Assembly: GCA_016788485.1 (NCBI GenBank)
Contig: JAEUSV010000120.1
Coordinates: forward strand, 53,744-117,743
Length of the DNA stretch: 64,000 nt
Source: Flavobacteriales bacterium
Lineage (GTDB): Bacteria; Bacteroidota; Bacteroidia; Flavobacteriales_F; PHOS-HE28
Direction of reading: 5' to 3'
The notes beneath the pieces are model-generated. The model had not been told where the DNA came from and ran no database searches. It was given only the letters and a program-made list of their open reading frames with translations. How positions within the stretch are numbered: position 1 is the first letter of the stretch; each line of letters opens with the position of its first letter. Positions 11,996-31,245 of this stretch are shown piece by piece. The translations under genes and the position numbers were made by a program.

Positions 11996-11998
11996 GGT

Positions 11999-14014: not shown

Positions 14015-14141
14015 GATCGGGAAGGGGTGGACCACCAATTTACCGGTCGTCTTGTTGACAGGATGCACTTGTTAATTCCGTGCTAAAGACGGGGAAGGGG
14101 CCGAACGGCTGCCTCTATCTTCGGCCACCACCCTGCATACC

Positions 14142-15509
14142 ATGCGCTACCTGCTCTTCCTCTGCCGCGTCCTGGTCGGCGCCACCTTCATCGTCTCGGG
14201 CCTGGTGAAGGCCAACGACCCGCTCGGCTTCAGCTACAAGCTCGAGGAGTACTTCGCCGAGAGCGCGCTCAACTGGCCGGCGCTGGATCCCTGGGCCCTC
14301 ACGCTGGCCATGCTCGCCTGCCTCGGCGAGATCGTGCTCGGCTTCGCCATCCTGGTGGGCGGCCGCATGCGCCTGGCCACCACCGCCACCCTCATCCTCA
14401 CCCTCTTCTTCGGCTGGCTCACCGCCTACACCGACCAGTGCAACCAGCGCCAGAAGGCCGGCGAGAAGATGACCTACACCGTGGTGGTGAACGGCAAGGA
14501 GGAGGTGCGCGACAAGACCTGCGTCACCGATTGCGGCTGCTTCGGCGATGCCATGAAGGGGTCCATCGGCCGCAGCCTCACCCCGCGCGAGAGCTTCTAC
14601 AAGGACCTCATCCTCTTCATCTTCCTGCTGCCCGTGTTCATCGCCAGCTGGCGCAAACCCGGCATCGCGTTCAACACGGCAGGTGACGACCTGCTCTTGC
14701 TGCCCCTCGGCCTGGTGGTGGTGGGCGTATGGAGCTGGGTCTTCGGCTGGAGCTTCTACCTCTGGTTCACCGTGGTGGGGCTGGCGGGCTACCTGCTCAT
14801 CAAGCGTTCCGTGGCCGGAGTGAAGGGCGAGTGGGCCACCGCCGGGCTCGTGTCGGTGCTCAGTGCCGTGTTCATGTGGTGGTGCCTCAACCACCTGCCC
14901 ATGAAGGACTACCGTCCCTTCGCCGTGGGCAAGAGCATCCCCGAAGGCATGGTGGTGCCCCCGGGGGAGAAGCCCGATGTGTACGAGACGGTGCTCACCT
15001 ACAAGAACATGAAGACCGGCGAGCTAAAGGACTTCTCCAGCGCCAACTACCCCTGGCAGGACAGCACCTGGGTGTGGCAGGCCACCGAGAACAAGCTGGT
15101 GCAGGAGGGCTACCACCCGCCCATCCACGACTTCGTGCTCACCGACAAGGACGGGGTCGATGTCACCGAGGGCATCCTGGCCGAGCCCGGCCCCGTGGTG
15201 CTGGTGGTGAGCAAGGACATCACCGAGGCCTCGGCCGCGTGTCAACCCGCCATCAACGCCCTGGCCGACGCCGCCTTCAAGAACGGCTGGTACGTGTACG
15301 GCGTCACCGCCAGCGGCTACGAGCAGATCGAGGAGTTCCGGCATACGCACCAGAACCCCTTCGATTACCTCCGCTGCGACGGCACGGTGCTCAAGACCGT
15401 GATCCGCAGCAACCCCGGCATCGTGCTGCTGCAGCAGGGCACCGTGCGCGGGCAGTGGCACTGCAACGATGTGCCCACCCTGGAGCAAGCGAAGGGGGCG
15501 TTGAAGTAA
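14142..15509 (+). CDS. DoxX-like membrane protein with a C-terminal Cys-containing (thioredoxin-like?) domain
   Basis: The 455-aa ORF has an N-terminus MRYLLFLCRVLVGATFIVSGLVKANDPLGFSYKLEEYF typical of DoxX/BT_3928-like proteins. It has about 6 TM segments. The C-terminal soluble part contains TCVTDCGCFGD and CQPAINALADAAF. Confidence 0.55.
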   Translation: MRYLLFLCRVLVGATFIVSGLVKANDPLGFSYKLEEYFAESALNWPALDPWALTLAMLACLGEIVLGFAILVGGRMRLATTATLILTLFFGWLTAYTDQCNQRQKAGEKMTYTVVVNGKEEVRDKTCVTDCGCFGDAMKGSIGRSLTPRESFYKDLILFIFLLPVFIASWRKPGIAFNTAGDDLLLLPLGLVVVGVWSWVFGWSFYLWFTVVGLAGYLLIKRSVAGVKGEWATAGLVSVLSAVFMWWCLNHLPMKDYRPFAVGKSIPEGMVVPPGEKPDVYETVLTYKNMKTGELKDFSSANYPWQDSTWVWQATENKLVQEGYHPPIHDFVLTDKDGVDVTEGILAEPGPVVLVVSKDITEASAACQPAINALADAAFKNGWYVYGVTASGYEQIEEFRHTHQNPFDYLRCDGTVLKTVIRSNPGIVLLQQGTVRGQWHCNDVPTLEQAKGALK

Positions 15510-17131: not shown

Positions 17132-17971
17132 ATGAACTACACCGAGGTCGACTTCCTCATCGCTCCGCTGGAGCCTTGGCGCGACATCCTCACCGCCGAG
17201 CTGGGCGAGCTGGGCTATGACAGCTTCGAGGAGACGCCCGGCGGACTGAAGGCCTACATCCTGAGCGAGCGCTTCGACCGGAAGGTGCTGCCCGAGCTGC
17301 TCACCCTGCGCGACCCGCATGCCTCGGTGAGCTACACGGTTCGTGCGGTGGAGCCGAGGAACTGGAACGCGGAGTGGGAGCGGAGCTTCACGCCGGTGGA
17401 GGTGGGGAAGGAGGTGCGCATCCGCGCCGAGTTCCATCCGTCGGTGCCGGGCTTCACGCACGAACTGGTCATCACACCGCGCATGGCCTTCGGCACGGGC
17501 CACCACGCCACCACGCGCATGATGGTGCAGGCCATGCTGGGCCTCGACCTGCACGGTCAGGCGGTGTGCGACCTGGGCTGCGGCACCGCGGTGCTGGCGG
17601 TGCTTGCCGAGAAGCGCGGGGCGAAGGAAGTGCTGGCCATCGACATCGACGCCCAGGCGGTCGACAACGCCCTGCACAACGTGGGGCTGAACGGTTGTCA
17701 CGCCATCACTGTGGAAAAGGGCACCGTGGCCGACCTGAGGGGCCGCAGGTACGGCACTATTTTGGCGAACATCGAGCGGAACACGCTGATGCGCGACATG
17801 GAGGCCATGCGCGACGCGCTGCTTCCCGGTGGTGCCTTGCTGCTCAGCGGTTTCGTGGTGGACGACCGCCACATGATGGCGCAGAGCGCGAAGCAGGCCG
17901 GGCTGCTCGTGGAGGAACGCTTGAACGAAGGCGAATGGGCCCTGATCGGATGCCGAAGACCACTTCCCTGA
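17132..17971 (+). CDS. prmA: ribosomal protein L11 methyltransferase
   Basis: The start was re-picked at MNYTEVDF. The C-terminal SAM-MTase motif is VCDLGCGTAVLAVLAEKRGAKEVLAIDID...LLLSGF. Confidence 0.85.
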   Translation: MNYTEVDFLIAPLEPWRDILTAELGELGYDSFEETPGGLKAYILSERFDRKVLPELLTLRDPHASVSYTVRAVEPRNWNAEWERSFTPVEVGKEVRIRAEFHPSVPGFTHELVITPRMAFGTGHHATTRMMVQAMLGLDLHGQAVCDLGCGTAVLAVLAEKRGAKEVLAIDIDAQAVDNALHNVGLNGCHAITVEKGTVADLRGRRYGTILANIERNTLMRDMEAMRDALLPGGALLLSGFVVDDRHMMAQSAKQAGLLVEERLNEGEWALIGCRRPLP

Positions 17972-20900
17972 TCCACCTGCTGCTGCGGGCCACCGCGGCG
18001 CTGCTGCTGTTCGCCTTCGCCGTGGCCGCGCAGGCGCAGACCAAGCCGTTCACCGACGACCAGGCCGTGTTCCTGGAGGAGGTCACCAACTTCCTCGTCG
18101 CCGCCGACAAGAAGGAGGGCAAGCCCTTCGTGGAGCAGGTGTTCGCCCCGGCCTGGAACGGCACCTACCTGTCGCCGGCGCAGCGCACCAAGGTCGTGGA
18201 GATGGCCAACTTCATGTTGAAGAAGCGCTACGAGGCCTTCCCGCATTTCCGCGACCTGCTTGCCGCCGTGGCCGCCTTCGCCAACAGCGGACGCCCCGCC
18301 GCCGAGTTCGACACCTGGATGCGCAGCCTCGACGCCATGGTGCAGAGCGGGCGCAAGAAGAACTTCACCGCCTTCGTCGAGATGTGCGCCGGTCTCTTCA
18401 AGGACAACACCCTGTTCAAGAGCCCCAGCACCCAGTGGCGCAGCAGCAGCGGCATCTTCACCTTCACCTACGACACCGTGCCCAAGGTGGTGTTCAACAA
18501 GCTCGATCTGGTGTGCCTGGCCAAGGGCGACAGCGCGGTGATCCGCAACACGAGCGGCACCTACTACCCGGTGGAGGAGATCTGGCGCGGCAAGGGGGGC
18601 CGGGTGGACTGGACGCGCGCCGGCCTGAAGCCCGAGGCCACCTTCGCCGAGTGGACGCACGACTATGCCATCAAGGTGAAGAGCGCGGCCTTCGAGATCG
18701 ATTCCGTCCAGTTCAACGACCCCTACTTCGAGAAGACGCTCTTCGGCAAGATCACCGACAAGGTGCTGGCCAACGTGGACGCCGATGAGGCGAGCTACCC
18801 GCGCTTCGAGAGCTACGACCGCCGCATGAAGATCCGCGACATCGTGGAGGGCATCGACTTCGAGGGCGGTTTCACCATGCAGGGCGCCAAGCTGCAGGGC
18901 TACGGCACCAAGGAGGAGCCCGCCTACCTCACCTTCTACCGCGACAAGCGCCCCTTCATCGTCACCCACGGCCTGCTCTACACCATCGAGCCCGAACGCG
19001 TGAGCAGCCAGGACGTCGCCGTCGCCATCCTGCTTGACAAGGACTCCATCTTCCACCCCAGCGTGAGCCTGCGTTTCCTGAAGGACAAGAAGCAGCTGAG
19101 CCTCATCAAGAAGGACGAGGGCCTGTCGAAGGGGCCGTTCTACGACACCTACCACAACCTCGACATGTACTTCGAGGTGCTCACGTGGAAGCAGGGCGAT
19201 CCCGTGGTCCAGCTCGGCAACCTGCAGGGCAGCTCGCAGACGCGCGCCTCGTTCGAGAGCTACAACTACTTCAAGGAGAAGCGCTACACCGCCATGCTCG
19301 GCGTGGACGCCGTGCATCCCCTGGTGCGGCTGCGCGACCACCAGAAGACCGCCGGCGACGTGTTCACCGCCACCGACTTCGCCGTGGCCACCCGCCTGCA
19401 GAAGCCCCAGGTGATCCCCATGCTCATCGACATGGCGAACAAGGGCTACATCGACTACGACCCCGAGGACGAGGTGGTGACCGTGAAGCCCCGCCTGCGC
19501 GAGCACGTGCTGGCCAGCGCCGGCAAGGTCGACTACGATGTGCTGCAGTTCAACAGCAACAGCGACGACGGGGTGAACGGCACCATCAACCTGCTCAACA
19601 ACGACCTCGCGCTCAAGGGTGTGGCCCGCATCATCCTCAGCGACTCGCAGGACGTGAAGATCTTCCCCAGCGAGAAGCTCGTGACCATCAAGAAGGACCG
19701 CGACTTCACCTTCGGCGGCGCGGTGCAGGCGGGCAAGCTCACCTTCCACGGCAAGGAGTACTACTTCCACTACCAGCCCTTCGTGATCGACCTGCTGAAC
19801 GTGGACTCGGTGAGCTTCATGGCCGACAGCTTCGACAAGGATGAGAACGGCCTGTCGCACCTGGTGCGGGTGAAGAACGTGCTGGAGAAGGTGAGCGGCA
19901 CCCTCGAGATCGACGCGCCCAGCAACAAGAGCGGGCTGCAGCAGGTGAAGGGGCCGGACGGCCGCATGACCGGCCGCTACCCCGAGTTCCCCAAGTTCAA
20001 CAGCGCCAAGGAGAGCTACGTGTTCTACGACCGCGGCGCGATCCAGAAGGGCGTGTACATCCGCGACAAGTTCTACTACCGCAGCGACCCCTTCCAGCTC
20101 GACAGCCTCGACGACTTCACCAACGACGGCCTCACCTTCACCGGTGTGCTCGTCTCCGCCGGCATCTTCCCCGACATCCGCGAGCCGCTGCGCTTGCAGA
20201 AGGACTACGCCCTCGGCTTCGTCCGGCCCACGGGCGCCGGCGGCCTGCCGTTGTACGGGCGCAAGGCCAACTTCACCAACACCATCAGCCTCAACTACAA
20301 GGGCCTGCAGGGCGATGGCGACATGACCTACCTCACCACCCAGGCCACCAGCACGGGCTTCGTGTTCTGCCCCGACAGCACCTTCGGCATCGTCGACACG
20401 CTCTTCAACCTCGCCGCCAAGGACCCCAAGCTCAACGTGCCCAACGTGAACGGCGCCAAGCTCTTCACCCGCCTGGAGCCGAAGAACGACGTGCTGCTGG
20501 CCGAGAAGCGCGAGCGTCCCATGACCATGTACGACGGGCAGGCCTTCCTGCACGGCCGCACCGAGCTCACCCCGAAGGGCATGACCGGCGCCGGGCTCGT
20601 GGACTTCACCAACGCCACGCTCGCCTCCAAGCTGTTCGACTTCCAGACGATGCGGATCCACGCCGACACCTCGGACTTCCGCCTCACCGAAGGGGACACC
20701 GCGAGCATCGCCTTCAAGACCGACAACGTGAACGCCACCGTGAAGCTCGACGAGCGGGTCGGCGAGTTCGTGAGCAACGGCACCGAGACCAAGGTGGAGT
20801 TCCCGGTGAACCAGTACATCTGCTTCATGGACCGCTTCAAGTGGTACATGGACCAGGGCGACCTGGAGCTGGAGAGCGACCGCACCGCCGCTGCGGCCAA

Positions 20901-22443
20901 CGAGGACCTCCAGCTGTCGGGCTCGAACTTCATCAGCATCCGGCCCGACCAGGACTCGCTCAGCTTCATGGCCCCCAAGGCGCGCTACGACCTGAAGAAG
21001 CACCTGATCACCGCGAACGACGTGCAGTACATCCAGGTGGCCGACGCGCTCGTGACCCCCGACAGCATGCGTGTGCGCATCCGCCGCAATGCCGAGATGG
21101 ACCCCCTTACCAACGCGGTCGTCACGGCCAACTTCGTCACCAAGCACCACCGCATCTACAACGCCACGGTCGACATCAAGGCCAAGCGCAACTACAGCGC
21201 CAACGGCGATTACGACTACGTCGACGAGGCCGGCAAGCCGTTCAAGATCAGGTTGCAGAACGTCAACGTCGACACCGCCTACCAGACCTACGCCAGGGGA
21301 CGCATCACCGAGGAGGAGGGCTTCCAGCTGAGCCCGGCCTTCGACTTCTTCGGCGATGTGCTGCTGCTGGCCAGCGAGAAGGAGCTCACCTTCACGGGCA
21401 CCACGCGCATCATGCACGACTGCCCGGGCCTCACCCGCAACTGGATGCGCTTCTCCGGCAAGGTGGACCCCGCGGAGGTGTTCATCCCCGTGGGCGACAC
21501 CCTCTCGGACGACAAGGGGCTGTCCATCGGCAACGGCGTGTTCCTCACCAACGACGACCCCTTCAAGACCTACGGCACCTTCCTGAGCCGCAAGCAGGAC
21601 AAGAACGACCGCACCATCATCGCCGGTCGCGGGCTGCTGTACTTCGACAAGGCCAAGCGTGAGTACCTCATCGGCCCCAAGGACAAGATCCGCCAGCGCA
21701 ACCTGCCGGGCGACCTGGTGAGCCTTTCCAATTCCGACTGCCGACTGAGCGCCGATGGCCACATCACCTACGGTGTGGACCTCGGCCGGGTGAAGCTCGA
21801 CGGCTACGGCACACTGGAGCAGACATCGGACAAGGGCACCACCGCCCGCACGGCGCTCTACGCCGACTTCCACTTCCTGGAGAACGCGCTGGAGAAGATG
21901 ACCGCCGACATCCTGGCCTACCCCGACCAGAAGCAGGTCGACATCACCAAGACCCCCTACGAGAAGTCCCTGCGCGAGATCCTGGGGCTGGAGCGCTCGG
22001 ACAAGCTGATCAGCGAGCTCAGCATCAAGGGCGAGATCAAGCGCCTGCCCGATGAGCTGCAGAAGGCACTCATGCTCTGCGACGTGGAGATGGCCTGGAA
22101 CAACGACGACCAGGCGTGGCAGAGCCAGGGCCTCATCGGGCTGGGCACCGTGCTCAAGAAGCCCGTGTTCCGCCAGCTGAAGGGCAAGGTGGAGGTGCAG
22201 CGCAAGCGCAGTGGCGACGTGATGACCATCCTGCTGATGCTCGACGACCAGACCTATTGGTTCTTCCAGTACTCACGGAACTACCTTTACGCATACAGCA
22301 GCAGCAGCGAGTTCAACACCATGCTCACCGAGGCGAAGGACGACAAGCGCGTGCTGGAATCGAAGAAGGATGAACCGGCCTACCAGTTCATCGTCACCAA
22401 CAAGCGGAAGGTGGACGAGTTCCGCGACCGTTTCGGCCTTTGA
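17950..22443 (+). CDS. large (1497-aa) secreted hypothetical protein
   Basis: The start was re-picked at MPKTTSLIHLLLRATAALLLFAFAVAAQAQT, a signal peptide. It overlaps the prmA 3' end by 22 nt. The frame has GC-coherent codon usage throughout. It has no low-complexity stretches and no recognisable catalytic motifs. Confidence 0.65.
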   Translation: MPKTTSLIHLLLRATAALLLFAFAVAAQAQTKPFTDDQAVFLEEVTNFLVAADKKEGKPFVEQVFAPAWNGTYLSPAQRTKVVEMANFMLKKRYEAFPHFRDLLAAVAAFANSGRPAAEFDTWMRSLDAMVQSGRKKNFTAFVEMCAGLFKDNTLFKSPSTQWRSSSGIFTFTYDTVPKVVFNKLDLVCLAKGDSAVIRNTSGTYYPVEEIWRGKGGRVDWTRAGLKPEATFAEWTHDYAIKVKSAAFEIDSVQFNDPYFEKTLFGKITDKVLANVDADEASYPRFESYDRRMKIRDIVEGIDFEGGFTMQGAKLQGYGTKEEPAYLTFYRDKRPFIVTHGLLYTIEPERVSSQDVAVAILLDKDSIFHPSVSLRFLKDKKQLSLIKKDEGLSKGPFYDTYHNLDMYFEVLTWKQGDPVVQLGNLQGSSQTRASFESYNYFKEKRYTAMLGVDAVHPLVRLRDHQKTAGDVFTATDFAVATRLQKPQVIPMLIDMANKGYIDYDPEDEVVTVKPRLREHVLASAGKVDYDVLQFNSNSDDGVNGTINLLNNDLALKGVARIILSDSQDVKIFPSEKLVTIKKDRDFTFGGAVQAGKLTFHGKEYYFHYQPFVIDLLNVDSVSFMADSFDKDENGLSHLVRVKNVLEKVSGTLEIDAPSNKSGLQQVKGPDGRMTGRYPEFPKFNSAKESYVFYDRGAIQKGVYIRDKFYYRSDPFQLDSLDDFTNDGLTFTGVLVSAGIFPDIREPLRLQKDYALGFVRPTGAGGLPLYGRKANFTNTISLNYKGLQGDGDMTYLTTQATSTGFVFCPDSTFGIVDTLFNLAAKDPKLNVPNVNGAKLFTRLEPKNDVLLAEKRERPMTMYDGQAFLHGRTELTPKGMTGAGLVDFTNATLASKLFDFQTMRIHADTSDFRLTEGDTASIAFKTDNVNATVKLDERVGEFVSNGTETKVEFPVNQYICFMDRFKWYMDQGDLELESDRTAAAANEDLQLSGSNFISIRPDQDSLSFMAPKARYDLKKHLITANDVQYIQVADALVTPDSMRVRIRRNAEMDPLTNAVVTANFVTKHHRIYNATVDIKAKRNYSANGDYDYVDEAGKPFKIRLQNVNVDTAYQTYARGRITEEEGFQLSPAFDFFGDVLLLASEKELTFTGTTRIMHDCPGLTRNWMRFSGKVDPAEVFIPVGDTLSDDKGLSIGNGVFLTNDDPFKTYGTFLSRKQDKNDRTIIAGRGLLYFDKAKREYLIGPKDKIRQRNLPGDLVSLSNSDCRLSADGHITYGVDLGRVKLDGYGTLEQTSDKGTTARTALYADFHFLENALEKMTADILAYPDQKQVDITKTPYEKSLREILGLERSDKLISELSIKGEIKRLPDELQKALMLCDVEMAWNNDDQAWQSQGLIGLGTVLKKPVFRQLKGKVEVQRKRSGDVMTILLMLDDQTYWFFQYSRNYLYAYSSSSEFNTMLTEAKDDKRVLESKKDEPAYQFIVTNKRKVDEFRDRFGL

Positions 22444-22446
22444 ACC

Positions 22447-23112
22447 ATGGACTTCCCCTGGGTGTACGGCATTTTCGGCATGAGCGCGGCCTACCTGTGC
22501 GGCAGCATCCCCACCAGCGTGTGGTGGGGGCGGGCGTTCCACGGGGTGGACGTGCGCGAGCATGGCAGCCGCAATGCAGGGGCCACGAACACCTTCCGGG
22601 TGCTGGGCTGGCGAGCGGGCCTGCCCGTGCTGCTCATCGATGTGCTCAAGGGCTTCCTGCCGGTGCGGCTCATCCCCAACTTCAGCGGGCTCGAGCCCGA
22701 CAGCGCGCCGTGGATGTGGTTCCGAGTGGCCCTGGTGCTCGCCGCGGTGATCGGGCACCTGTATCCGGTGTTCGCCGGCTTCAAGGGGGGCAAGGGCGTG
22801 GCCACCTCCCTCGGCGGTGTGCTGGCCGTGCACCCCGGTGCCGCCGCCATCTGCGTGTTGGTGTTCGCCGTGGTGTTCGGCCTGTCCAAGTATGTCTCCC
22901 TCGGCTCGCTCAGCGCCGCCCTGTCGTTCCCGCTGGCCGTGGTGCTGCTGTACCACGAGACGAGCCCGGTGAAGATCGGCTTCGCGGCGGTGCTCTGCGC
23001 CATGGTGTTCTACACGCACCGGCAGAATATCGGGCGCTTGTTGCGGGGGGAGGAGAACCGGATGAGCCTGTCGGCATCGCCTCCGGGCGCTGCGCGCGGC
23101 GGGAAAGCATGA
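22447..23112 (+). CDS. plsY: glycerol-3-phosphate acyltransferase PlsY
   Basis: The 221-aa ORF reads GSIPTSVWWG...HGSRNAGATNTFRVLG...FKGGKGVAT, a typical PlsY/YgiH signature. Confidence 0.88.
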   Translation: MDFPWVYGIFGMSAAYLCGSIPTSVWWGRAFHGVDVREHGSRNAGATNTFRVLGWRAGLPVLLIDVLKGFLPVRLIPNFSGLEPDSAPWMWFRVALVLAAVIGHLYPVFAGFKGGKGVATSLGGVLAVHPGAAAICVLVFAVVFGLSKYVSLGSLSAALSFPLAVVLLYHETSPVKIGFAAVLCAMVFYTHRQNIGRLLRGEENRMSLSASPPGAARGGKA

Positions 23113-26100
23113 AACCCTCTGGGCCTCTGGACCGTATACGCGCCCACTCTCAGTTGATGAACCGCTTCACGGGTATGCTCTTCGCCCTGGCGGTCCCCTT
23201 GTTGGGCCTGGCCCAGGGAGGTGACCTGCAGTTGCGCGCCAAGGCCGACGCCCTCTTCGCCGAGGGACGCTTCGCCGAGGCCTACCCGCTCTATTCCCAG
23301 CTCGTGAGCCTCACGCCCTCGGACCGTGAGCTCAATTACCGTTTCGGTGCCTGCACGCTCTACGGCGGCGACGACAAGGAGAAGGCCATCGGCCACCTGA
23401 AGTACGCCGTGGAGGGTCCTTCCGCCCCGCCGCTCGCTTGGTACTTCCTCGGGCGCAGCTACCACGTGTCCTACCGCTTCAAGGAGGCCTTGGTGGCCTA
23501 CGAGCGCTACAAGGGGACGGCCGACAAGAAGACCCTGACGCAGTACCCTGCCGACGCGCTCGAGCAGCAGTGCCGCAATGGCCAGCAGCTGCTCAGCAAC
23601 CTCAAGGACATCGAGGTCCACAGCAAGCTCGAGGTCGAAGCGGCGGAGTTCTTCCGCTTCTATGACCTGGCGGGCATCGGCGGGCGCATCGTGGTGACGC
23701 CGGACGAGCTGCGCTCCAGCCTCGACAAGAAGAGCGACTTCCGTTCACTGATCTACCTGCCGGAGAAGCCCGGCCCCATCTACTTCAGCAGCCTGGGCAA
23801 GGACGGCCGCACCGGCAAGGACATCTACCGCACCGAGTTGCTGGCCACGGGTCAGTTCGCCGAGCCGCAGAAGCTGGCCGGCTACGTGAACACCGATCAG
23901 GACGAGGACCATCCCTTCCTTTCCGCCGACGGGCGTTATTTCTACTTCGCCTCGAAGGGGCACAACAGCATGGGCGGCTACGACGTGTTCCGCGCCTCGT
24001 ACGACAAGGGCCTCGACGTGTTCGGAGCGCCGGAGAACCTCGATTTCGCGGTGAACACGCCCGACGACGACATCCTCTACATGGTCGACGCGGAAGGGAA
24101 GCAGGCCTGTTTCGCCAGCGGCCGCAGCAGCCACCAGGGCATGCTGCACGTGTACCGGGTAAGCACGGCGCAGACCCCGGTCAACATCACGGTGCTCAAG
24201 GGGACCTATGCTTCGCAGTACGACGCGAACGACCGCAAGGCCCACCTGGTGGTGGAGGATGCGCTCACCCGCGAGAAGGTGGCCGACGTGCGCACCGACC
24301 AGAACGGCAATTACGTGCTCGCACTGCCACGCAGCGGCCGCTATCGGTTCGTGGTGGAGGCCGGCCCTTCCGGGCGCACCCACGTGGGGCAGGTGGAGGT
24401 GCCGCGCAGCGATTCACCGAAGGCCTACCGCCAGGAGATGAGCCTGGTGGACCAGGCCGGCCAGGAGAAGCTGATGATCCGCAACTACTTCGAGGAGCCC
24501 CTGGCGGAGGACCTCATCGCCCTGGCCCTCGAGGAGATCAAGCGGCGCGCCGCATTGGATGTGACCGGAAGCAGGCCCGAAGTTCCCGCACCTGCGGCCG
24601 AGCCCGCGCCCGTGGCCGATGTGATGACCGCAGCGGGCTTCACGGGCGATGTGAGCAAGGAGCAGGCCGTTCAGCTCGCGAAGGACGATGCCCGCGCCCT
24701 TGAGCAGGAGACCGAGCAGCTCCAGGCGATGAGCGCTGAGGCTTTCCGCATCGCCGAGGCCAACGCCGCCGAAAGCGACCGCCTGGGCACCGAGGCCGCT
24801 TCGCTCGTCGCCCAAGCCTCCGCCGCCACCGATGAGCAGCAGCGCAATGGGCTGATGGCGCAGGCCGCCCGCACACGGCAGTTCGCCAACGAGGCCCGCC
24901 AGCGGTCGCAGGCCGCGCTGGGCGCCGCGCGCTCGCTCGACACGCGTCGCATGGCCACGGCCACCGCGGCGCAGAACGCGCAGCGGCTTTCCACTGAGCT
25001 CACCGCCGCGATCGGCGCCAACGACCGCGACCGCACCGTGGCCCAGCTTTCCGCGCTGAAGGCCCGCATGGACGTGAAGAACGGACCCGATGGCGGCATC
25101 GATGCGCGCGAGGAGGCCCGTCGCAGCGCCACCCAGGCCGCACAGGATGCCGACAAGGTGCTGCAGCGTTCGCAGAGCGTGAGCAACGAAGAGACCGAGC
25201 TCGTGGAACGCATCGATCGGCTGAAGCGCGAGCAGGCGGATGCCGGACGTGCCCGGAAGGAGGAGCTCGGACGCGAGATCACCACGCTCGAGGAGCAGCT
25301 GGGCTACCTGCGCGAGGAGAAGATGCAGGCGGTGGGCAAGGCCCGGGCCGCGCAGCAGCAGGCGGCCATCGCGCAAGGGCAGGCCACGCTCGTGGCCGCG
25401 CTCGCGGAGGGTACGCGCACCGCGGCTCCCGCCCCCGATGCGGCCCGCATGGCCGCGCTGGAGGGTACGCTCGGCAAGAACGCCCAGCGCATGCAGGACC
25501 TGGCCATCGACGAACGCTATGATGCGGCTGTGGCCGTGGAGCGGGCCGGTTCCGCGCAGCACACCTTCGATTGGAAGCTCCAGGGCGACGGACCTGCCAC
25601 TGCGCAAGGGAACATGCCTACGCAGACCGGCACAGGCCAGCGCGTGGACGGCGAGATGATGGCGGCCAACACCGTGACCATGGAGGCCCCCGCCGCTGGC
25701 GACCGCACGCTGAACACCGCCCAGGTACCCCCCGCGAACACCGGTGAGGTACCGGTGTCCGAAGTACGAGGTGAGGAGGGGGGGGGACGGCCGCCGACAC
25801 AACACGCTGAAGGCGCCCCTGCCGTGACCACCGCTGTGGTCGTGGCCACTGCTGTCGCGGCCAACGCGGCCTCCAACGGAGAACAGCAAGGCGAGGGGCG
25901 TCCGCCTGTGCAGGAGGAGCAACCTCCGGCAGGGGAGATCGCGGTGGCCGAGCCCGTGCCCTCGCGCACCGAAGAGGAGCTTGTGTCCATGCGTGGTGCG
26001 GGGCAGGTGGACACCTCCAGCGCCTCGGAGCCTCCCGTGGATGAAGCGTCGTTCATGGCGGCCAACGAGCTGGCCGAGCTGAAGCAGCTGCGCAACGCGG

Positions 26101-29100
26101 AGAAGAACCGGGCGCGGCGCGACAGCCTCGATCAGCGCATCGCTGCGATCGAGAAGGGCATGCAGGCCGACGATCGACCGGCCGTGGTGGAGCAGGCCAG
26201 CGATCGCGACGAGGAGCCGGTCACCGGCACGGCGCGTGCGTTCGAAGCATCGATCGCCTCTCCGCAGCTCGATGCATTGCTCGTTCCCGACCATGCGGCC
26301 GATGTGCAACGGATCGCGGAGGGAACGCTGGCACCCGCCGACAAGGCAGTGGTGCTGCACGGCCTGGAGCTCGTGGTGGTCGACAGCATCGAGGCCGAAA
26401 CGGCCCGGCAGCTCGCCCTGTTGGACACGGACCCCACGCTGGCGACCGAGGTCCTGCCGCGTGTGGAACGCCTGCGCCAGTTGAAGGAGGAGCATGTGAA
26501 GCGCGCGGACGAGATCCTCGCCGCATCGCAACAGCAATACGTGGCGCAGGAGTCCCGCACCATGGAGCAGCAGGCCCAGGCCGCCGTCGATGCGCAGGCC
26601 ACGCCTTCCGCCCAGCCTGTGGTGGTGCAGGCAGGGCAGGGCGGAGGCACCACGCATGTGGACCGCTACGTGAGCGTGTCACCGAGCACCGAGTTCGTCT
26701 ACGAGAGCGTGGTGGAGCACCGCAACCCCGCCGTTGCCGAGGCGGTGGCCGAGAAGGACCGCGACCTGATGCGCATCGCCGACCTCGGCGACCGGATCGA
26801 TTCGCTGGAGGATGTGCTGGAGGAGATGCCCAAGGGCAGGGAGTACGACAAGCTGCGCACCCAGGCCGATCGCATGATCGACGAAGAGGTGATCCTGCGC
26901 ACGGAACTGGGTCAGCGCATGGCCTACATCAGCCGCGAGGAGATGCGCCTGGCCGAGGACAGCCTGCGTGAAGTGGGGAGCCTCGTCACCGCGCGTGGCA
27001 TAGCTGCGGACGAGCCATTGGTGCTGCTGGCGGAGGAGTTCCGGAAGGAGGCCGCCGCGCAGACGCAGGAGGCCGCCACCAAGCGCAAGCAGGCCGACCG
27101 TTCCGAGGACATCCTGGAGCGCGACCGGCTCTACCGCGAGGCCTATGAAGCCGAGCTTCAGGCCCTCCGCAGCATGGACCAGGCCATCACCGTGAAGAAC
27201 CACCTGCTGGGCGCCGACCATGTCGCCGGTGAGCGCCTCACGTACGCGGAGGTGGAGCAGCGGATGTTCGCCTCGGCGGAGGCCGCGCCCATGGCCGACG
27301 GCAACGCGGCAGGAACGGTCGCACCGAAGGGGCTTGTGGAGACAGGTGTGAGGGTGGTCCCCACCACGGACACCACCGGCACGGACCCCGCCACGATGCC
27401 AGCCAACATGGCGCTCTATCAGCGCTTCCTCAGCGAGGACGAGCCTGCCTTGAAGCCCAGCGAGCTGATCACGGTGGACGCCAGCGCCATCGCCTTGGAG
27501 AGCAGCCAGGCGCGCCAGCAGGCCTCCGCGCTTGAGCAGCGCTCCAACGAGCTCGGCGACCGGGCCATCGCCCTGCGCGACAGCGCGGCCACCGCCCGCA
27601 AGCGCGACCGGGAGCAGCTGGAGACCGAGGCCCTGCGGGCGCAGCAGCTCAGCGATTCCCTGCACCAGGCCTCGCTCGCCATGGAGCAACGCGCACAGGT
27701 GCTCGACCAGCGCCAGCGCGAAGTGGAGGAGGCCCGTGCCTTCAACGAGCGCCTGAAGAAGTTCTATTACCTGGGCGGTGAGGAGCAGCTCGTGGTGATG
27801 AACGAGGCCGACCACAGCCGCTACTTCATGGCGCGCAGCCTCTCCCTCGAGCAGCAGCAGCGGGCCATGGCGGACGGTGAGGAGGCCCTGGCCGGCCGCC
27901 AGCTTTCCGATACGCTGGTGGCGCAGGCCGCACGCCTGTTGGCCGAGCCCGACCGCGCGGACGGCAGCTTGAGCCCCGAGCGCATGGCCCAGGCCCAGCG
28001 CCTGAACGAGCGTGCCGTGGAACTGCACGACCGCTCCGACTCGCTCAGCGCATCGGCCGAGCGGTTGAAGAGCGCCGCCGACCTGAACGATCGCCAGGCC
28101 ACCTTGCTGTTGCAGGGCATGGCCACCGACCGTTCCACCGAGGTGATGGCCCTGGAACAACGCACGCGTCGCGTTGACCCGCTGATCGCACGTTCGCGCG
28201 CGCTGATCGCCCAGGTCGATTCGATCAAGGCCCGTGAGGCCGCGCTGGCCCAACAGCAGGGCGGTGCCCCGGCCGGTGCCGCACCCGCGAACGCCGCGCA
28301 GGCTCCCGCTGGTGCCGTGGCGCAGGAGGCCGTGCGCCCGCCCGCCGGAGCCCCGGGCACCGATGTCGCCGCTGTGACACGTCCGACGGAGCCTGTGGTG
28401 CCGGCAGCGACCGAACGCGCGGTGCCCGACCCGGTGGCTCCGGCCCCTGGAGCGTTCGTCGCGCCCGAGGTGCTCACCACGGACATCTTCGGCTTCAAGG
28501 AGGCCGGTGCCGCCCCCGCCCCGATCGCCAAGGACCAGCCCATGCCGAAAGGTGTGGTGTTCAAGGTGCAGGTCGGCGCCTTCAAGAACGATATCCCGCA
28601 GGAGCTCTTCAGCGACATGATGCCGGTGATGGGGGAGACGACCGCTTCCGGCGTCACCCGTTACACCGCAGGTCTTTTCAACACGCCCGAGGCGGCCGAG
28701 AAGGCCCGTGCGTTGGTGCGTGAGCGCGGCTACCGCGATGCCTTCGTCGTGGCCTACATCGATGGTGGCCGCGTGCCGATGACACAGGCCGTGAAGGCGA
28801 TGGCCCCGCTGCCGGGAGCTGTGGCCGCGGCCCAGCCTGAACCGGCCACGCGCCCCGCCGCCGTGATCCAGGCCCCGGCCACCGCGGTCGCCGCACCGGA
28901 CGACGCCCAGGTGCTCGCTACGTACCCGCCCACCGCGGAGGAGCTGCTGGGCCAGTTCGCGCCGCCTGCCGATGCCACGGCCTACTACAACGACCCGACC
29001 GCCGCCCCCGCCCGCCAGGTGGAGACCGTGAAGGGCCTCTTCTTCACGGTGCAGGTGGGCGTGTACAGCAAGCCCACCGCGCTGGACAAGCTCTTCAATA

Positions 29101-29336
29101 TCACCCCGCTCAACAGCGAACGCACCGAGACCGGCAAGATCCGCTACACCACGGGTGTGTTCCTCGACCTGGACAAGGCCCGTACGCGCAAGGATGAGGC
29201 GGTGGGGCTCGGTGTGAAGGACGCCTTCATCACGGCCTACCTCAACGGCAAGCGCATCCCCATGCGCGATGCACGGGCCCTGCTGCAGAAGTTCGGCCCG
29301 AGCGTGCTCGCCGATCCGTCCATCGCCACCCGCTGA
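23109..29336 (+). CDS. giant (2075-aa) envelope protein: signal peptide, TPR, TolB/PD40-like repeats, CarbopepD_reg-like domain, ~1300-aa Ala/Gln/Glu/Arg-rich coiled-coil, and two C-terminal SPOR-like repeats
   Basis: Its ATG at 23109 overlaps the plsY TGA in an ATGA arrangement; an alternative in-frame ATG lies at 23157. The N-terminal ~440 aa resemble the TPR + PD40 + CarbopepD_reg part of Bacteroidota OmpA-family proteins (IYFSSLGKDGRTGKDIY, ADGRYFYFASKGHNSMGGYDVF, VNITVLKGTY...NGNYVLALPRSGRYRFVVEA). Residues ~480-1800 are heptad-like charged and Ala-rich sequence. The C-terminus carries two ~75-aa repeats of VFKVQVGAF.../LFFTVQVGVY... form, at about 28551-28775 and 29033-29270. Confidence 0.7.
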   Translation: MKPSGPLDRIRAHSQLMNRFTGMLFALAVPLLGLAQGGDLQLRAKADALFAEGRFAEAYPLYSQLVSLTPSDRELNYRFGACTLYGGDDKEKAIGHLKYAVEGPSAPPLAWYFLGRSYHVSYRFKEALVAYERYKGTADKKTLTQYPADALEQQCRNGQQLLSNLKDIEVHSKLEVEAAEFFRFYDLAGIGGRIVVTPDELRSSLDKKSDFRSLIYLPEKPGPIYFSSLGKDGRTGKDIYRTELLATGQFAEPQKLAGYVNTDQDEDHPFLSADGRYFYFASKGHNSMGGYDVFRASYDKGLDVFGAPENLDFAVNTPDDDILYMVDAEGKQACFASGRSSHQGMLHVYRVSTAQTPVNITVLKGTYASQYDANDRKAHLVVEDALTREKVADVRTDQNGNYVLALPRSGRYRFVVEAGPSGRTHVGQVEVPRSDSPKAYRQEMSLVDQAGQEKLMIRNYFEEPLAEDLIALALEEIKRRAALDVTGSRPEVPAPAAEPAPVADVMTAAGFTGDVSKEQAVQLAKDDARALEQETEQLQAMSAEAFRIAEANAAESDRLGTEAASLVAQASAATDEQQRNGLMAQAARTRQFANEARQRSQAALGAARSLDTRRMATATAAQNAQRLSTELTAAIGANDRDRTVAQLSALKARMDVKNGPDGGIDAREEARRSATQAAQDADKVLQRSQSVSNEETELVERIDRLKREQADAGRARKEELGREITTLEEQLGYLREEKMQAVGKARAAQQQAAIAQGQATLVAALAEGTRTAAPAPDAARMAALEGTLGKNAQRMQDLAIDERYDAAVAVERAGSAQHTFDWKLQGDGPATAQGNMPTQTGTGQRVDGEMMAANTVTMEAPAAGDRTLNTAQVPPANTGEVPVSEVRGEEGGGRPPTQHAEGAPAVTTAVVVATAVAANAASNGEQQGEGRPPVQEEQPPAGEIAVAEPVPSRTEEELVSMRGAGQVDTSSASEPPVDEASFMAANELAELKQLRNAEKNRARRDSLDQRIAAIEKGMQADDRPAVVEQASDRDEEPVTGTARAFEASIASPQLDALLVPDHAADVQRIAEGTLAPADKAVVLHGLELVVVDSIEAETARQLALLDTDPTLATEVLPRVERLRQLKEEHVKRADEILAASQQQYVAQESRTMEQQAQAAVDAQATPSAQPVVVQAGQGGGTTHVDRYVSVSPSTEFVYESVVEHRNPAVAEAVAEKDRDLMRIADLGDRIDSLEDVLEEMPKGREYDKLRTQADRMIDEEVILRTELGQRMAYISREEMRLAEDSLREVGSLVTARGIAADEPLVLLAEEFRKEAAAQTQEAATKRKQADRSEDILERDRLYREAYEAELQALRSMDQAITVKNHLLGADHVAGERLTYAEVEQRMFASAEAAPMADGNAAGTVAPKGLVETGVRVVPTTDTTGTDPATMPANMALYQRFLSEDEPALKPSELITVDASAIALESSQARQQASALEQRSNELGDRAIALRDSAATARKRDREQLETEALRAQQLSDSLHQASLAMEQRAQVLDQRQREVEEARAFNERLKKFYYLGGEEQLVVMNEADHSRYFMARSLSLEQQQRAMADGEEALAGRQLSDTLVAQAARLLAEPDRADGSLSPERMAQAQRLNERAVELHDRSDSLSASAERLKSAADLNDRQATLLLQGMATDRSTEVMALEQRTRRVDPLIARSRALIAQVDSIKAREAALAQQQGGAPAGAAPANAAQAPAGAVAQEAVRPPAGAPGTDVAAVTRPTEPVVPAATERAVPDPVAPAPGAFVAPEVLTTDIFGFKEAGAAPAPIAKDQPMPKGVVFKVQVGAFKNDIPQELFSDMMPVMGETTASGVTRYTAGLFNTPEAAEKARALVRERGYRDAFVVAYIDGGRVPMTQAVKAMAPLPGAVAAAQPEPATRPAAVIQAPATAVAAPDDAQVLATYPPTAEELLGQFAPPADATAYYNDPTAAPARQVETVKGLFFTVQVGVYSKPTALDKLFNITPLNSERTETGKIRYTTGVFLDLDKARTRKDEAVGLGVKDAFITAYLNGKRIPMRDARALLQKFGPSVLADPSIATR

Positions 29337-29385
29337 CCGCAAAGGGTGCCCGGGCCTTATTTTTGGGCTTTCATCCCTGGCGCCC

Positions 29386-29667
29386 ATGGGTCACCTGTTC
29401 TCACCGGAGGAAGCGCTGCTCGAGGAGGTCCTTTGCGAGACCGGCCCCGTGCGCGAGCTCATCCTGCACAACGACGATGTGAACACCTTCGATCATGTGA
29501 TCGAATGCCTGGTCGAGATCTGCGGGCACGACCCCATCCAGGCCGAGCAGTGCGCGTGGATCGTGCATTACAATGGCAAGTGCAGTGTGAAGCGCGGCAC
29601 GTTCGACAACCTCGAGCCCCGGTGCACCGCCCTGCTCGACCGCGGGCTCAGCGCCACCATCCAATGA
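29386..29667 (+). CDS. clpS: ATP-dependent Clp protease adaptor ClpS
   Basis: The start was re-picked at MGHLFSPEE. The ~93-aa protein reads ILHNDDVNTFDHVIECLVEICGH...AEQCAWIVHYNGKCSV. Confidence 0.85.
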   Translation: MGHLFSPEEALLEEVLCETGPVRELILHNDDVNTFDHVIECLVEICGHDPIQAEQCAWIVHYNGKCSVKRGTFDNLEPRCTALLDRGLSATIQ

Positions 29668-30473
29668 GCGGCGTCCGCACCTTCCGCGTGGCCGCCGTGC
29701 TGGCCCTCGTGCTGCTGGTGCATGCCTGTGCCAAGGTGCCCATCACCGGGCGCCGCCAGCTGCACCTGATCGATGAGGGGCAGATGATGGGCATGGCGCT
29801 CACCCAGTACGAGGCCTTCCTTCAGGAGCATCCGCCGCTGCCGGACAGCGACGCGCGCGTGAAACAGGTGCGCCGCATCGGCGAGCGCCTGGCCGCGGCC
29901 GCCACCACCTACCTGAACGAGCACCGCGCCGGCTCGCGCGTGGAGGGCTTCCAGTGGTCCTTCAACGTCGTGAACGATGCCACCGTGAACGCCTGGTGCA
30001 TGCCCGGCGGCAAGGTGGTGGTGTACACCGGGATCCTGCCGGTGACACAGGACGAGGCCGGGCTGGCCGTGGTGATGGGGCACGAGATCGCGCACGCCAT
30101 CGCACGCCATGGCAACGAGCGCATGAGCCAGGCCATGGCCGTGGAGGGCGCGGGCACCACGCTCGACGTGTTCACCTCCCAGAAGCCCGGTTACGCGCGC
30201 GACCTTTTCATGCAGAGCTACGGCATCGGTTCGCAGCTGGGCATGCTGGCCTACAGCCGCAAGCACGAGACCGAGGCCGACAAGATGGGGCTCGTGTTCA
30301 TGGCCATGGCGGGGTACGACCCGCGCACCGCCCCCACCTTCTGGCAGCGCATGGCAGCCCAGGGCGGTGGTGGCCAGCCGGAGTTCCTGAGCACGCACCC
30401 GAGCGACGAGACCCGGGTGCGCGACCTGGAGGCCTTCATGCCCGAGGCCTTGAAGTACTACAAGCAGCCCTGA
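29664..30473 (+). CDS. M48-family zinc metallopeptidase (lipoprotein)
   Basis: Its ATG overlaps the clpS TGA in an ATGA arrangement. It has a signal peptide with a Cys (LLVHAC). The HEIAHAIARH zincin motif is present, followed by a downstream E(TEADK). Confidence 0.8.
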   Translation: MSGVRTFRVAAVLALVLLVHACAKVPITGRRQLHLIDEGQMMGMALTQYEAFLQEHPPLPDSDARVKQVRRIGERLAAAATTYLNEHRAGSRVEGFQWSFNVVNDATVNAWCMPGGKVVVYTGILPVTQDEAGLAVVMGHEIAHAIARHGNERMSQAMAVEGAGTTLDVFTSQKPGYARDLFMQSYGIGSQLGMLAYSRKHETEADKMGLVFMAMAGYDPRTAPTFWQRMAAQGGGGQPEFLSTHPSDETRVRDLEAFMPEALKYYKQP

Positions 30474-30495: not shown

Positions 30496-31245
30496 ATGCG
30501 CGGCACGCTCCACCGGTCGTTCGCCCGTGTGCGGCAGTGGGCGACATCGGCGCTGTGGCCGTTCTTCCTGCGGAGCCTCCGCCTCACCGTGAAGGTGGCC
30601 GGCACCGCAGCCCTGGTGCTGATCGTCCTGGCCTGCACCCGGCTGCCGTTCGATGCCCACCGGGCCCTGGGTACGTCCTGTGCCTGCACGCAGGAGCCGC
30701 AGGCCGTGGTGGTACTGGGCGGAAGCGGCATGCCTTCGGGACCGGAACTGCGCCGCCTGCAGCATGGCGCCATGCTGGCGAACGCGTTGCCCGCGGTACC
30801 GGTGTTCGTCGTCCACCCGCCCGACACCGGCGTCATGCGGCAGATGGTGGACGAGCTCGTGCTGCGAGGGGTGGAACGCGGGCGGATCACCGCTGTGCTG
30901 CACGGGACCAACACGCGCGAGCAGGCCCTGGCCATGGTGCGGCTGCATCCGGAGCTTGCCGGACGCCGGATCGCCCTGGTGACGGCACCGGAGAACATGT
31001 TCCGCAGTGTGCGCACCTTCCGCCGGGCAGGATGCCCGCAGGTCTGTGGCGAGCCGGCCTGGGACAACCCCATGTTCATCGACCTGGCCTATGGCCACAG
31101 GCGCATCGGCGGCAAGGCCTGGATGCCCGATGTGAGCGGGGAGACCGGCCTGCGCTACACCTTCTGGAACTACCTGAAACTGGAGGTGACCTGCCTGCGG
31201 GAGTACGTGGCCATCGGCTACTACTGGTTGAACGGGTGGATCTGA
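30496..31245 (+). CDS. YdcF/ElyC/SanA-family (DUF218) protein
   Basis: The 249-aa ORF has an N-terminal TM segment and a DUF218-like core (VVVLGGSGMPSGPE...IALVTAPENMFRSVRTF). Confidence 0.65.
   Translation: MRGTLHRSFARVRQWATSALWPFFLRSLRLTVKVAGTAALVLIVLACTRLPFDAHRALGTSCACTQEPQAVVVLGGSGMPSGPELRRLQHGAMLANALPAVPVFVVHPPDTGVMRQMVDELVLRGVERGRITAVLHGTNTREQALAMVRLHPELAGRRIALVTAPENMFRSVRTFRRAGCPQVCGEPAWDNPMFIDLAYGHRRIGGKAWMPDVSGETGLRYTFWNYLKLEVTCLREYVAIGYYWLNGWI

Follow-up and report, generated by a model that had tools for sequence, protein, structure and literature searches.

What might a protein of about 2,000 residues, encoded directly downstream of the glycerol-3-phosphate acyltransferase gene plsY, do in a bacterium of the order Flavobacteriales? 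The question arises from a stretch of 64,000 nucleotides of contig JAEUSV010000120.1 (GenBank assembly GCA_016788485.1, positions 53,744 to 117,743), which is called the window here and to which all coordinates refer. A preliminary description of the window had noted a giant gene on the plus strand and suggested that its product is an envelope protein. The gene can be read from two starts, and residue numbers below count from the first of them.

23109..29336, plus strand: open reading frame (ORF) of the giant gene as first read, a single unbroken frame of 2075 codons
23157..29336, plus strand: the giant gene from its likeliest start, 2059 aa plus stop; a start at 23109 would add 16 residues

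We read the product as a periplasmic scaffold anchored to peptidoglycan, or a tether of the outer membrane, and hold this reading with about even confidence; the binding, the outer-membrane partner and the localisation are all inferred. Given the evidence for SPOR domains at the C-terminus, an envelope role with peptidoglycan binding remains the best reading.

SPOR-like repeats at the C-terminus

Two SPOR-like repeats had been proposed for the C-terminus, and they were located as follows.

28545..28808, plus strand: SPOR-like repeat 1, aa 1813–1900 (Pfam SPOR, PF05036, 26.2–28.5 bits, cutoff 21)
29028..29303, plus strand: SPOR-like repeat 2, aa 1974–2065 (homology to repeat 1 and the same predicted topology)

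The repeats are homologous to one another (hhalign probability 99.5%, E-value 5e-23, 32% identity over 88 columns). Repeat 1 passed the Pfam SPOR threshold, as it did in 19 of 20 orthologues, and the family profile matched the SPOR domain of CwlC (1x60) over its whole length with an E-value of 0.01. Repeat 2 was the most conserved segment of the giant protein, with 74–90% identity across orthologues. The Gln of the VQVG strand was invariant in both repeats (Q1821 and Q1982), as were three arginines in repeat 1 (R1851, R1871 and R1888) and two in repeat 2 (R2012 and R2049). A conserved Gln and an Arg patch form the critical contacts in SPOR–glycan complexes (PMC6895207), and the sequence pattern fits an equivalence of Q1821 and Q1982 to RlpA Q270.

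The structure prediction that had been suggested for this region gave a confident AlphaFold model of aa 1790–2075, with a mean pLDDT of 83.5 and values of about 90 in both repeats. The predicted topology was the same in the two, namely strand, short turn, strand, strand, helix and strand, followed by an extra short strand and helix. The top Foldseek match in the PDB was the CwlC SPOR domain (1x60; probability 0.99, target TM-score 0.64), and the SPOR domains of RlpA and DedD were also listed. From sequence and model, the C-terminal repeats are likely to be divergent SPOR-type domains that lack the first helix, and glycan binding is predicted for them.

A PorE-like head

The first 440 or so residues had been compared to OmpA-family proteins with TPR, PD40 and CarboxypepD_reg domains, and this comparison held, with TPR and PD40 above their Pfam cutoffs and the third domain below its own.

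23220..23618, plus strand: TPR region, aa 38–170 (PDB consensus TPR proteins match aa 47–133 with E-values down to 7e-14; Pfam TPR_14 27 bits, cutoff 23.5)
23619..24188, plus strand: PD40/TolB-like β-propeller, aa 171–360 (Pfam PD40 27.8 bits, cutoff 20.9)
24189..24533, plus strand: CarboxypepD_reg-like domain and conserved tail of about 40 aa, aa 361–475 (PF13620 20.7 bits, below the cutoff of 32.3)

PD40 was found in 21 of 22 orthologues. The CarboxypepD_reg-like region was 59–75% identical across orthologues, and was also covered by local matches of aa 224–415 to two NCBIfam models, CHU_0125_OmpA (NF053607; E-value 3.5e-23, 82 bits, cutoff 620) and PorE of the machinery for type IX secretion (T9SS) (NF052230; E-value 9e-22, 77.1 bits, cutoff 600). 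These matches cover the propeller and the CarboxypepD_reg-like domain (CRD) of the models, and the head has the PorE-type order of TPR, β-propeller and CRD. PorE of Porphyromonas gingivalis (PG1058) is a TPR-WD40-CRD-OmpA_C lipoprotein. Its binding to the outer-membrane protein PorP requires WD40, and the peptidoglycan-binding residues of OmpA_C are essential (PMC12773672). PorE and CHU_0125 both connect partners in the outer membrane with peptidoglycan. No OmpA domain was found in the query or in 22 orthologues, in agreement with the preliminary description. Because the scores were 77–82 bits against cutoffs of 600–620, and because OmpA_C and the lipobox are missing, the giant protein is, as judged by its sequence, a member of neither the PorE nor the CHU_0125 family.

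Export signal and location

The N-terminus (MNRFTGMLFALAVPLLGLA, followed after the cut by QGGD) carries a Sec signal peptide of typical form that has no Cys, and the orthologues are alike in this.

23157..23219, plus strand: Sec signal peptide, with the probable cut between LGLA and QGGD, before an invariant Gln, and no lipobox cysteine

Q36 was invariant in 22 diverse orthologues, and an invariant Gln after the predicted cut fits the 'Q-rule' for signal peptidase I substrates of Bacteroidetes (PMC5837995). The giant protein is most likely soluble in the periplasm. Two other identities were considered and discarded. A lipoprotein was ruled out by the missing lipobox cysteine, and a T9SS cargo protein by the absence of a C-terminal sorting domain, the C-terminus being occupied by the second SPOR-like repeat.

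In the helical modules of the middle region, six tripeptides of the form D-S-[L/I/A] were kept in 87–100% of 119 orthologues and belong to the few invariant positions of these modules.

26382–26390, 26799–26807, 26958–26966, 27579–27587, 27654–27662 and 28038–28046: D-S-[L/I/A] sites at aa 1092, 1231, 1284, 1491, 1516 and 1644

The middle contains nine such motifs where 3.9 are expected (P ~0.02). The O-glycosylation motif of Bacteroidota, D-S/T-A/L/V/I/M/T, is used on non-cytoplasmic proteins (PMC12871550). The conserved sites match this sequon and would fit a non-cytoplasmic location, but they could equally be a structural motif.

Proposed role and its alternatives

Taken together, these features would describe a protein that is exported to the periplasm, soluble there and without a lipid anchor, its parts arranged like beads on a string. 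The SPOR pair would fix the C-terminus to peptidoglycan, and would probably do so on glycan strands that amidases have stripped of their peptides. Such amidases are concentrated at division sites, and the SPOR tail would hence be enriched at septa. From SPOR biology, localisation at the division site may reasonably be expected. The head may dock an outer-membrane protein partner, as the propeller of PorE does with PorP, while a flexible, modular middle would supply reach and further binding surfaces. Overall, the protein would organise or tether the outer membrane while itself anchored to peptidoglycan.

Several findings count against this proposal. Repeat 2 alone had no SPOR match in Pfam or among PDB sequences, and is tied to the SPOR family only by its homology to repeat 1. 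The SPOR fold is of the RNP type, in which two helices flank a four-stranded antiparallel sheet; in both repeats the first SPOR helix is cut to one turn and a conserved strand-helix extension has been added. The Pfam alignment of repeat 1 covers only the second half of the SPOR model, and this together with the reduced helix means that glycan binding could be altered or lost. The Foldseek E-values were weak (0.067), and PII, ACT and other ferredoxin-like folds also appeared among the matches. The scores of the head fall well short of the cutoffs for PorE and CHU_0125, so that the partner of such proteins is not transferable to it. Finally, the middle contains five conserved, non-repetitive modules, which suggests specific functions that a tether does not explain.

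The alternative that survives best holds that the C-terminal repeats are domains of ferredoxin-like fold in which peptidoglycan binding has been lost, and that the protein is a periplasmic protein–protein hub, for example with the 1497-aa protein encoded upstream of plsY or the M48 protease encoded downstream of the giant gene. Tight synteny with these two genes is consistent with a hub, as are the failure of repeat 2 to match SPOR directly, the loss of the first helix with the gain of the extension, and the other ferredoxin-like folds found by Foldseek. We nevertheless regard it as unlikely, because repeat 1 exceeds the SPOR threshold in nearly all orthologues tested (19/20), a SPOR domain is the top structural match with a probability of 0.99 and the SPOR-type Gln is invariant.

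It is quite improbable that the protein is instead an accessory of the T9SS or of gliding, that is, a PorE paralogue with a head that docks an outer-membrane barrel of PorP/SprF type and a SPOR pair that ties the machinery to the wall. The score of 77 bits, where the cutoff is 600, the absence of both a lipoprotein signal and the OmpA_C that is essential in PorE, and a conserved neighbourhood (plsY, M48 and DUF218) that contains no T9SS core gene all speak against such an origin, even though the head fits the PorE model (E-value 9e-22) as well as that of CHU_0125, the PorE propeller binds PorP, and cargo-type sorting domains occur in the window (a weak match) and beside relatives.

Helical modules of the middle region

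Between the head and the C-terminus lies a long region that was described as rich in A, Q, E and R. The measured share of these residues in aa ~500–1800 was 45%, and about 69% of the region is helical. AlphaFold was run on aa 501–1700 with 18 sequences (mean pLDDT 75.8), and predicted helices of 30–60 residues with tight turns and pLDDT >90, which indicates folded-back bundles. Segments with pLDDT <50 (aa 826–975, 1024–1039, 1164–1180 and 1389–1446) coincided with poorly conserved, gap-rich stretches. In the model, the middle thus appears as five different conserved antiparallel helical-bundle modules, M1 to M5, joined by disordered linkers.

24651..25544, plus strand: helical-bundle module M1, aa 515–812 (AlphaFold helices of 46–61 residues, pLDDT >90)
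25584..26033, plus strand: variable disordered linker, aa 826–975, rich in A/G/E/P/V/T (pLDDT ~28; 6–16% identity and many gaps across orthologues)
26034..26198, plus strand: helical hairpin module M2, aa 976–1030 (AlphaFold, orthologue conservation)
26256..26603, plus strand: helical module M3, aa 1050–1165 (AlphaFold, orthologue conservation)
26655..27278, plus strand: helical-bundle module M4, aa 1183–1390 (AlphaFold, orthologue conservation)
27279..27446, plus strand: variable disordered linker, aa 1391–1446 (pLDDT <50, low conservation)
27456..28208, plus strand: helical-bundle module M5, aa 1450–1700 (AlphaFold, orthologue conservation)
28209..28508, plus strand: Ala/Pro-rich linker, aa 1701–1800 (29% Ala, 14% Pro, poorly conserved)

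An all-against-all profile comparison revealed no internal repeats among the helical modules, the sole hint being M1b against M2 (77% probability over 34 columns). The modules had no Pfam relatives, a profile search of PDB sequences gave nothing meaningful, and Foldseek matched the model of the middle only to generic helical bundles and F-BAR domains, with E-values of 0.095 or worse. A search with the middle profile returned only 171 matches at E ≤0.001 among 1.84 billion representative proteins.

The preliminary description had pictured this region as a coiled-coil stalk of about 1300 residues, and a continuous, dimeric stalk spanning the periplasm between the outer membrane and the wall is accordingly the next explanation to be considered. 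The composition and helicity of the middle would suit it, and a hydrophobic periodicity of 3.5 residues is present in short stretches. However, the family-averaged periodicity was patchy and weak, with power >5 in only a few 42-residue windows, the predicted helices fold back with high confidence, and the four linkers of 16–150 residues are disordered and poorly conserved. A single helix of 1300 residues would be ~195 nm long, far beyond the width of the periplasm. The stalk is therefore highly unlikely, and five bundle modules with four disordered linkers take its place in the model.

Integrity and distribution of the gene

The giant gene is real, intact and full-length. The protein deposited at NCBI, 'MAG: PD40 domain-containing protein [Flavobacteriales bacterium]', is identical from residue 17 on (2059 aa, with the start at M17, position 23157). 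A search with the giant protein yielded 954 related protein clusters; among the 120 clusters listed, lengths were 2,011–2,391 aa and every named one came from uncultured Flavobacteriales. Relatives were present in 241 genomes in a scan of one genome per species, from which 80 loci were kept, all of them metagenome-assembled and some from long-read assemblies. The family was found only in uncultured Flavobacteriales and related Bacteroidia. No paper describing it was found, and the deposits are named only 'PD40 domain-containing' or 'hypothetical' protein.

The DNA across the ORF region has a G+C content of 64–72%, and the preliminary description had raised the concern that the ORF might prove to be split by a frameshift, of which there was no sign in the open frame or the full-length orthologues. 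An assembly or annotation artefact, in which an ORF was fused or frameshifted in GC-rich, low-complexity DNA, has virtually no chance of being correct, since the high G+C content (65–72%) and the long shadow ORFs on the opposite strand are outweighed by more than 950 independent full-length clusters with identical order of parts, some orthologues coming from long-read assemblies, by the conservation of the middle modules and by the 241 species genomes that carry the gene.

The strand opposite the giant and upstream genes carries very long antisense ORFs of 747, 902 and 1391 aa (24414–29387 and 17698–21873, minus strand). They are most likely shadow ORFs of high G+C DNA and not genes.

A wider superfamily

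The search with the middle profile also recovered proteins of 1,700–3,019 aa (P0181–P0256, and those of loci L081 and L082) that match M1 only, in the same position after the head. M1 is the sole middle module common to this wider superfamily, whose members, according to profiles built for this analysis, begin with the TPR-propeller-CRD head and M1, continue with a long middle that is unrelated, and have two to four SPOR-like repeats. Starting from one such protein, P0224, a search gave 1,907 clusters, the sources being uncultured Bacteroidota, Bacteroidia or Flavobacteriales throughout, with Parvicellaceae among them. The two ends and M1 thus form the conserved core of the predicted architecture. 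Most of the middle differs in the distant relatives, whereas the head and the two to four SPOR-like repeats are retained, so the two ends would be the constrained functional parts.

The junction with plsY

The giant gene had been described as translationally coupled to plsY through an ATGA overlap. The gene and the junction are as follows.

22447..23112, plus strand: plsY, glycerol-3-phosphate acyltransferase (Pfam G3P_acyltransf E-value 1.9e-56; TIGR00023 176 bits, cutoff 137)
23110..23156, plus strand: conserved 44-nt intergenic stretch, consisting of the plsY stop TGA and AAC(C)-N17-(C/G)GTA(C/T)AAG-GCCCACTCTC, then the conserved ATG (48 junctions aligned)

The ATGA is present at 23109–23112 and contains the TGA stop of plsY, and plsY was found directly upstream of the giant gene, on the same strand, in almost every locus extending far enough. 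The coupling itself was not supported. The upstream codon at the ATGA position varies among orthologues between ATG, GTG and TTG, and 4 of 30 junctions have it in another frame than the giant ORF. In 28 of 30 junctions, an ATG in frame with that ORF lies 41–44 nt past the plsY stop, just before the hydrophobic core (MNR/MTR...). In the window this conserved ATG is at 23157, 48 nt downstream of 23109, and is also the start chosen by NCBI. The ATGA overlap is therefore not likely to be the working start, and the real start is probably 23157. With the upstream codon out of frame in some orthologues and a conserved ATG downstream of it, the conservation of the 'MKP...SAHS' peptide is that of conserved intergenic DNA.

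The consensus of the junction is xTGAAACC-N17-(C/G)GTA(C/T)AAG-GCCCACTCTC. The pattern TGAAAC-N16-18-SGTAYA had a single match in the 64-kb window, where 0.02 are expected, and in 20 loci it likewise had a single occurrence, at the junction. Promoters of extracytoplasmic function (ECF) sigma factors in Bacillus subtilis have a −35 element TGAAAC and a −10 element CGTA (PMC5758882), and the junction motif tentatively resembles such a promoter, in a comparison that crosses phyla. The same spacing and geometry were not kept in the distant locus L081. For both these reasons the promoter reading is kept as a lead. A scan of the plsY/giant junction found neither a sigma-70-type promoter nor an intrinsic terminator.

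Gene neighbourhood

A search for orthologues in the same neighbourhood had been suggested, and synteny with plsY was indeed conserved across species. The gene order is that of the 1497-aa protein, plsY, the giant gene, the M48 protease and often DUF218, with gaps of 3, 44, 9 and 22 nt in the window. The genes surrounding plsY and the giant gene are listed here.

17950..22443, plus strand: upstream 1497-aa protein with signal peptide, its end 3 nt from plsY (synteny kept in 52 orthologous loci and L081)
29346..30473, plus strand: M48 metalloprotease with a partial BepA/LoiP-like match (Pfam Peptidase_M48 E-value 1.1e-33), 9 nt past the giant gene
30496..31245, plus strand: DUF218-domain protein (Pfam E-value 1.1e-12; syntenic in 34 loci)

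This order was kept in nearly all loci extending far enough, the M48 protease included, and also around the distant 3,019-aa relative in L081, where ClpS is inserted. It was not kept around the distant relative P0224. The five genes form a same-strand cluster with an envelope theme (plsY, BepA-like M48 and DUF218). The 1497-aa protein had no Pfam, NCBIfam or PDB match, and its identity of 64–89% across orthologues is above the conservation of the giant protein. Its homologues were unnamed or 'hypothetical' in all 120 among the matches listed. The proteins reached from P0224 were likewise unnamed or 'hypothetical'. The searches from P0224 and from the 1497-aa protein led to uncultured genomes only, with no cultured or studied member.

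Two further observations concern other genes of the window. Two adjacent ORFs of ~680 aa (9959–14068, minus strand) have weak SBBP β-propeller matches and one weak match to a T9SS sorting domain, and are possibly paralogous secreted proteins. A 455-aa protein (14142–15509, plus strand) has a MauE/DoxX membrane domain at its N-terminus and also matches the BT_3928 family strongly (372 bits).

Significance

How the outer membrane of Bacteroidota is tethered to the wall, and how it is pulled inward at division, is poorly understood, and the Pal-like and PorE-like proteins of this phylum already depart from the models developed in Proteobacteria. What is new in the family described here is the recombination of a PorE/Pal-type head with SPOR domains and with a set of helical modules, ~1,300 residues in all, that is specific to the family; a known head is joined to another wall-binding module, SPOR and not OmpA_C, via a very long, conserved modular middle. 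A more far-reaching possibility is that this lineage-specific giant scaffold is a new device for envelope coordination that does the job of Tol-Pal and FtsN-type proteins in Proteobacteria. The tandem SPOR domains would read amidase-processed septal peptidoglycan, the head would grip outer-membrane complexes and the modules would recruit factors, among which the 1497-aa protein and the M48 protease are candidates, with expression possibly from an ECF (envelope-stress) promoter. We give this only a small probability.

The hosts number in the hundreds and are uncultured species, abundant in metagenomes from wastewater and freshwater. The family is a concrete candidate for septum-directed tethering of the outer membrane, and offers ~1,200 residues of conserved helical modules without known relatives together with a five-gene envelope cluster that includes a large uncharacterised protein. 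It stays within known categories and is a good experimental lead for the biology of the envelope and of division in Bacteroidota.

Comparison with known systems

The Tol-Pal system includes the β-propeller of TolB, the TPRs of CpoB and the helical domain II of TolA, and the giant protein resembles it in combining PD40, TPRs and a long A/E/R/Q-rich helical region in one polypeptide. Library scans of the giant protein gave no match to TolA, TolB_N or CpoB models, and it differs in having no inner-membrane anchor and no link to the TolQR motor.

With PorE, the giant protein shares the N-terminal order of TPR, β-propeller (WD40/PD40) and CarboxypepD_reg-like domain, with detectable homology over aa 224–415 (E-value 9e-22), as well as a periplasmic location and a peptidoglycan-binding module at the end, both of which are predicted in its case. 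It departs from PorE in having neither a lipobox nor OmpA_C, in the ~1300 residues of helical modules that have been added, and in the two SPOR-like domains with which it ends. CHU_0125 of Cytophaga hutchinsonii is a 656-aa TPR-PD40-OmpA_C 'Pal', the loss of which damages outer-membrane integrity and raises vesicle release (PMC5891637). A role of this type is what we propose for the giant protein. The TPR and PD40 head is common to both, and CHU_0125 is the best NCBIfam match of the giant protein, but the OmpA_C of CHU_0125, which is 40% identical to Escherichia coli Pal, is replaced in the giant protein.

The likeness to SPOR proteins such as FtsN, DamX, DedD, RlpA and CwlC lies in the signature strand VQVGAF with its invariant Gln, in the Pfam match and in the structural matches to CwlC, RlpA and DedD. 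The known SPOR proteins of division are small, being either bitopic in the membrane or lipoproteins, and usually carry a single SPOR domain. Where FtsN, DamX and DedD have an N-terminal transmembrane anchor, the giant protein has a cleavable signal peptide, and its 2,059 residues make it a soluble protein of a different order of size that ends in a tandem of two SPOR-like domains, or two to four in its relatives.

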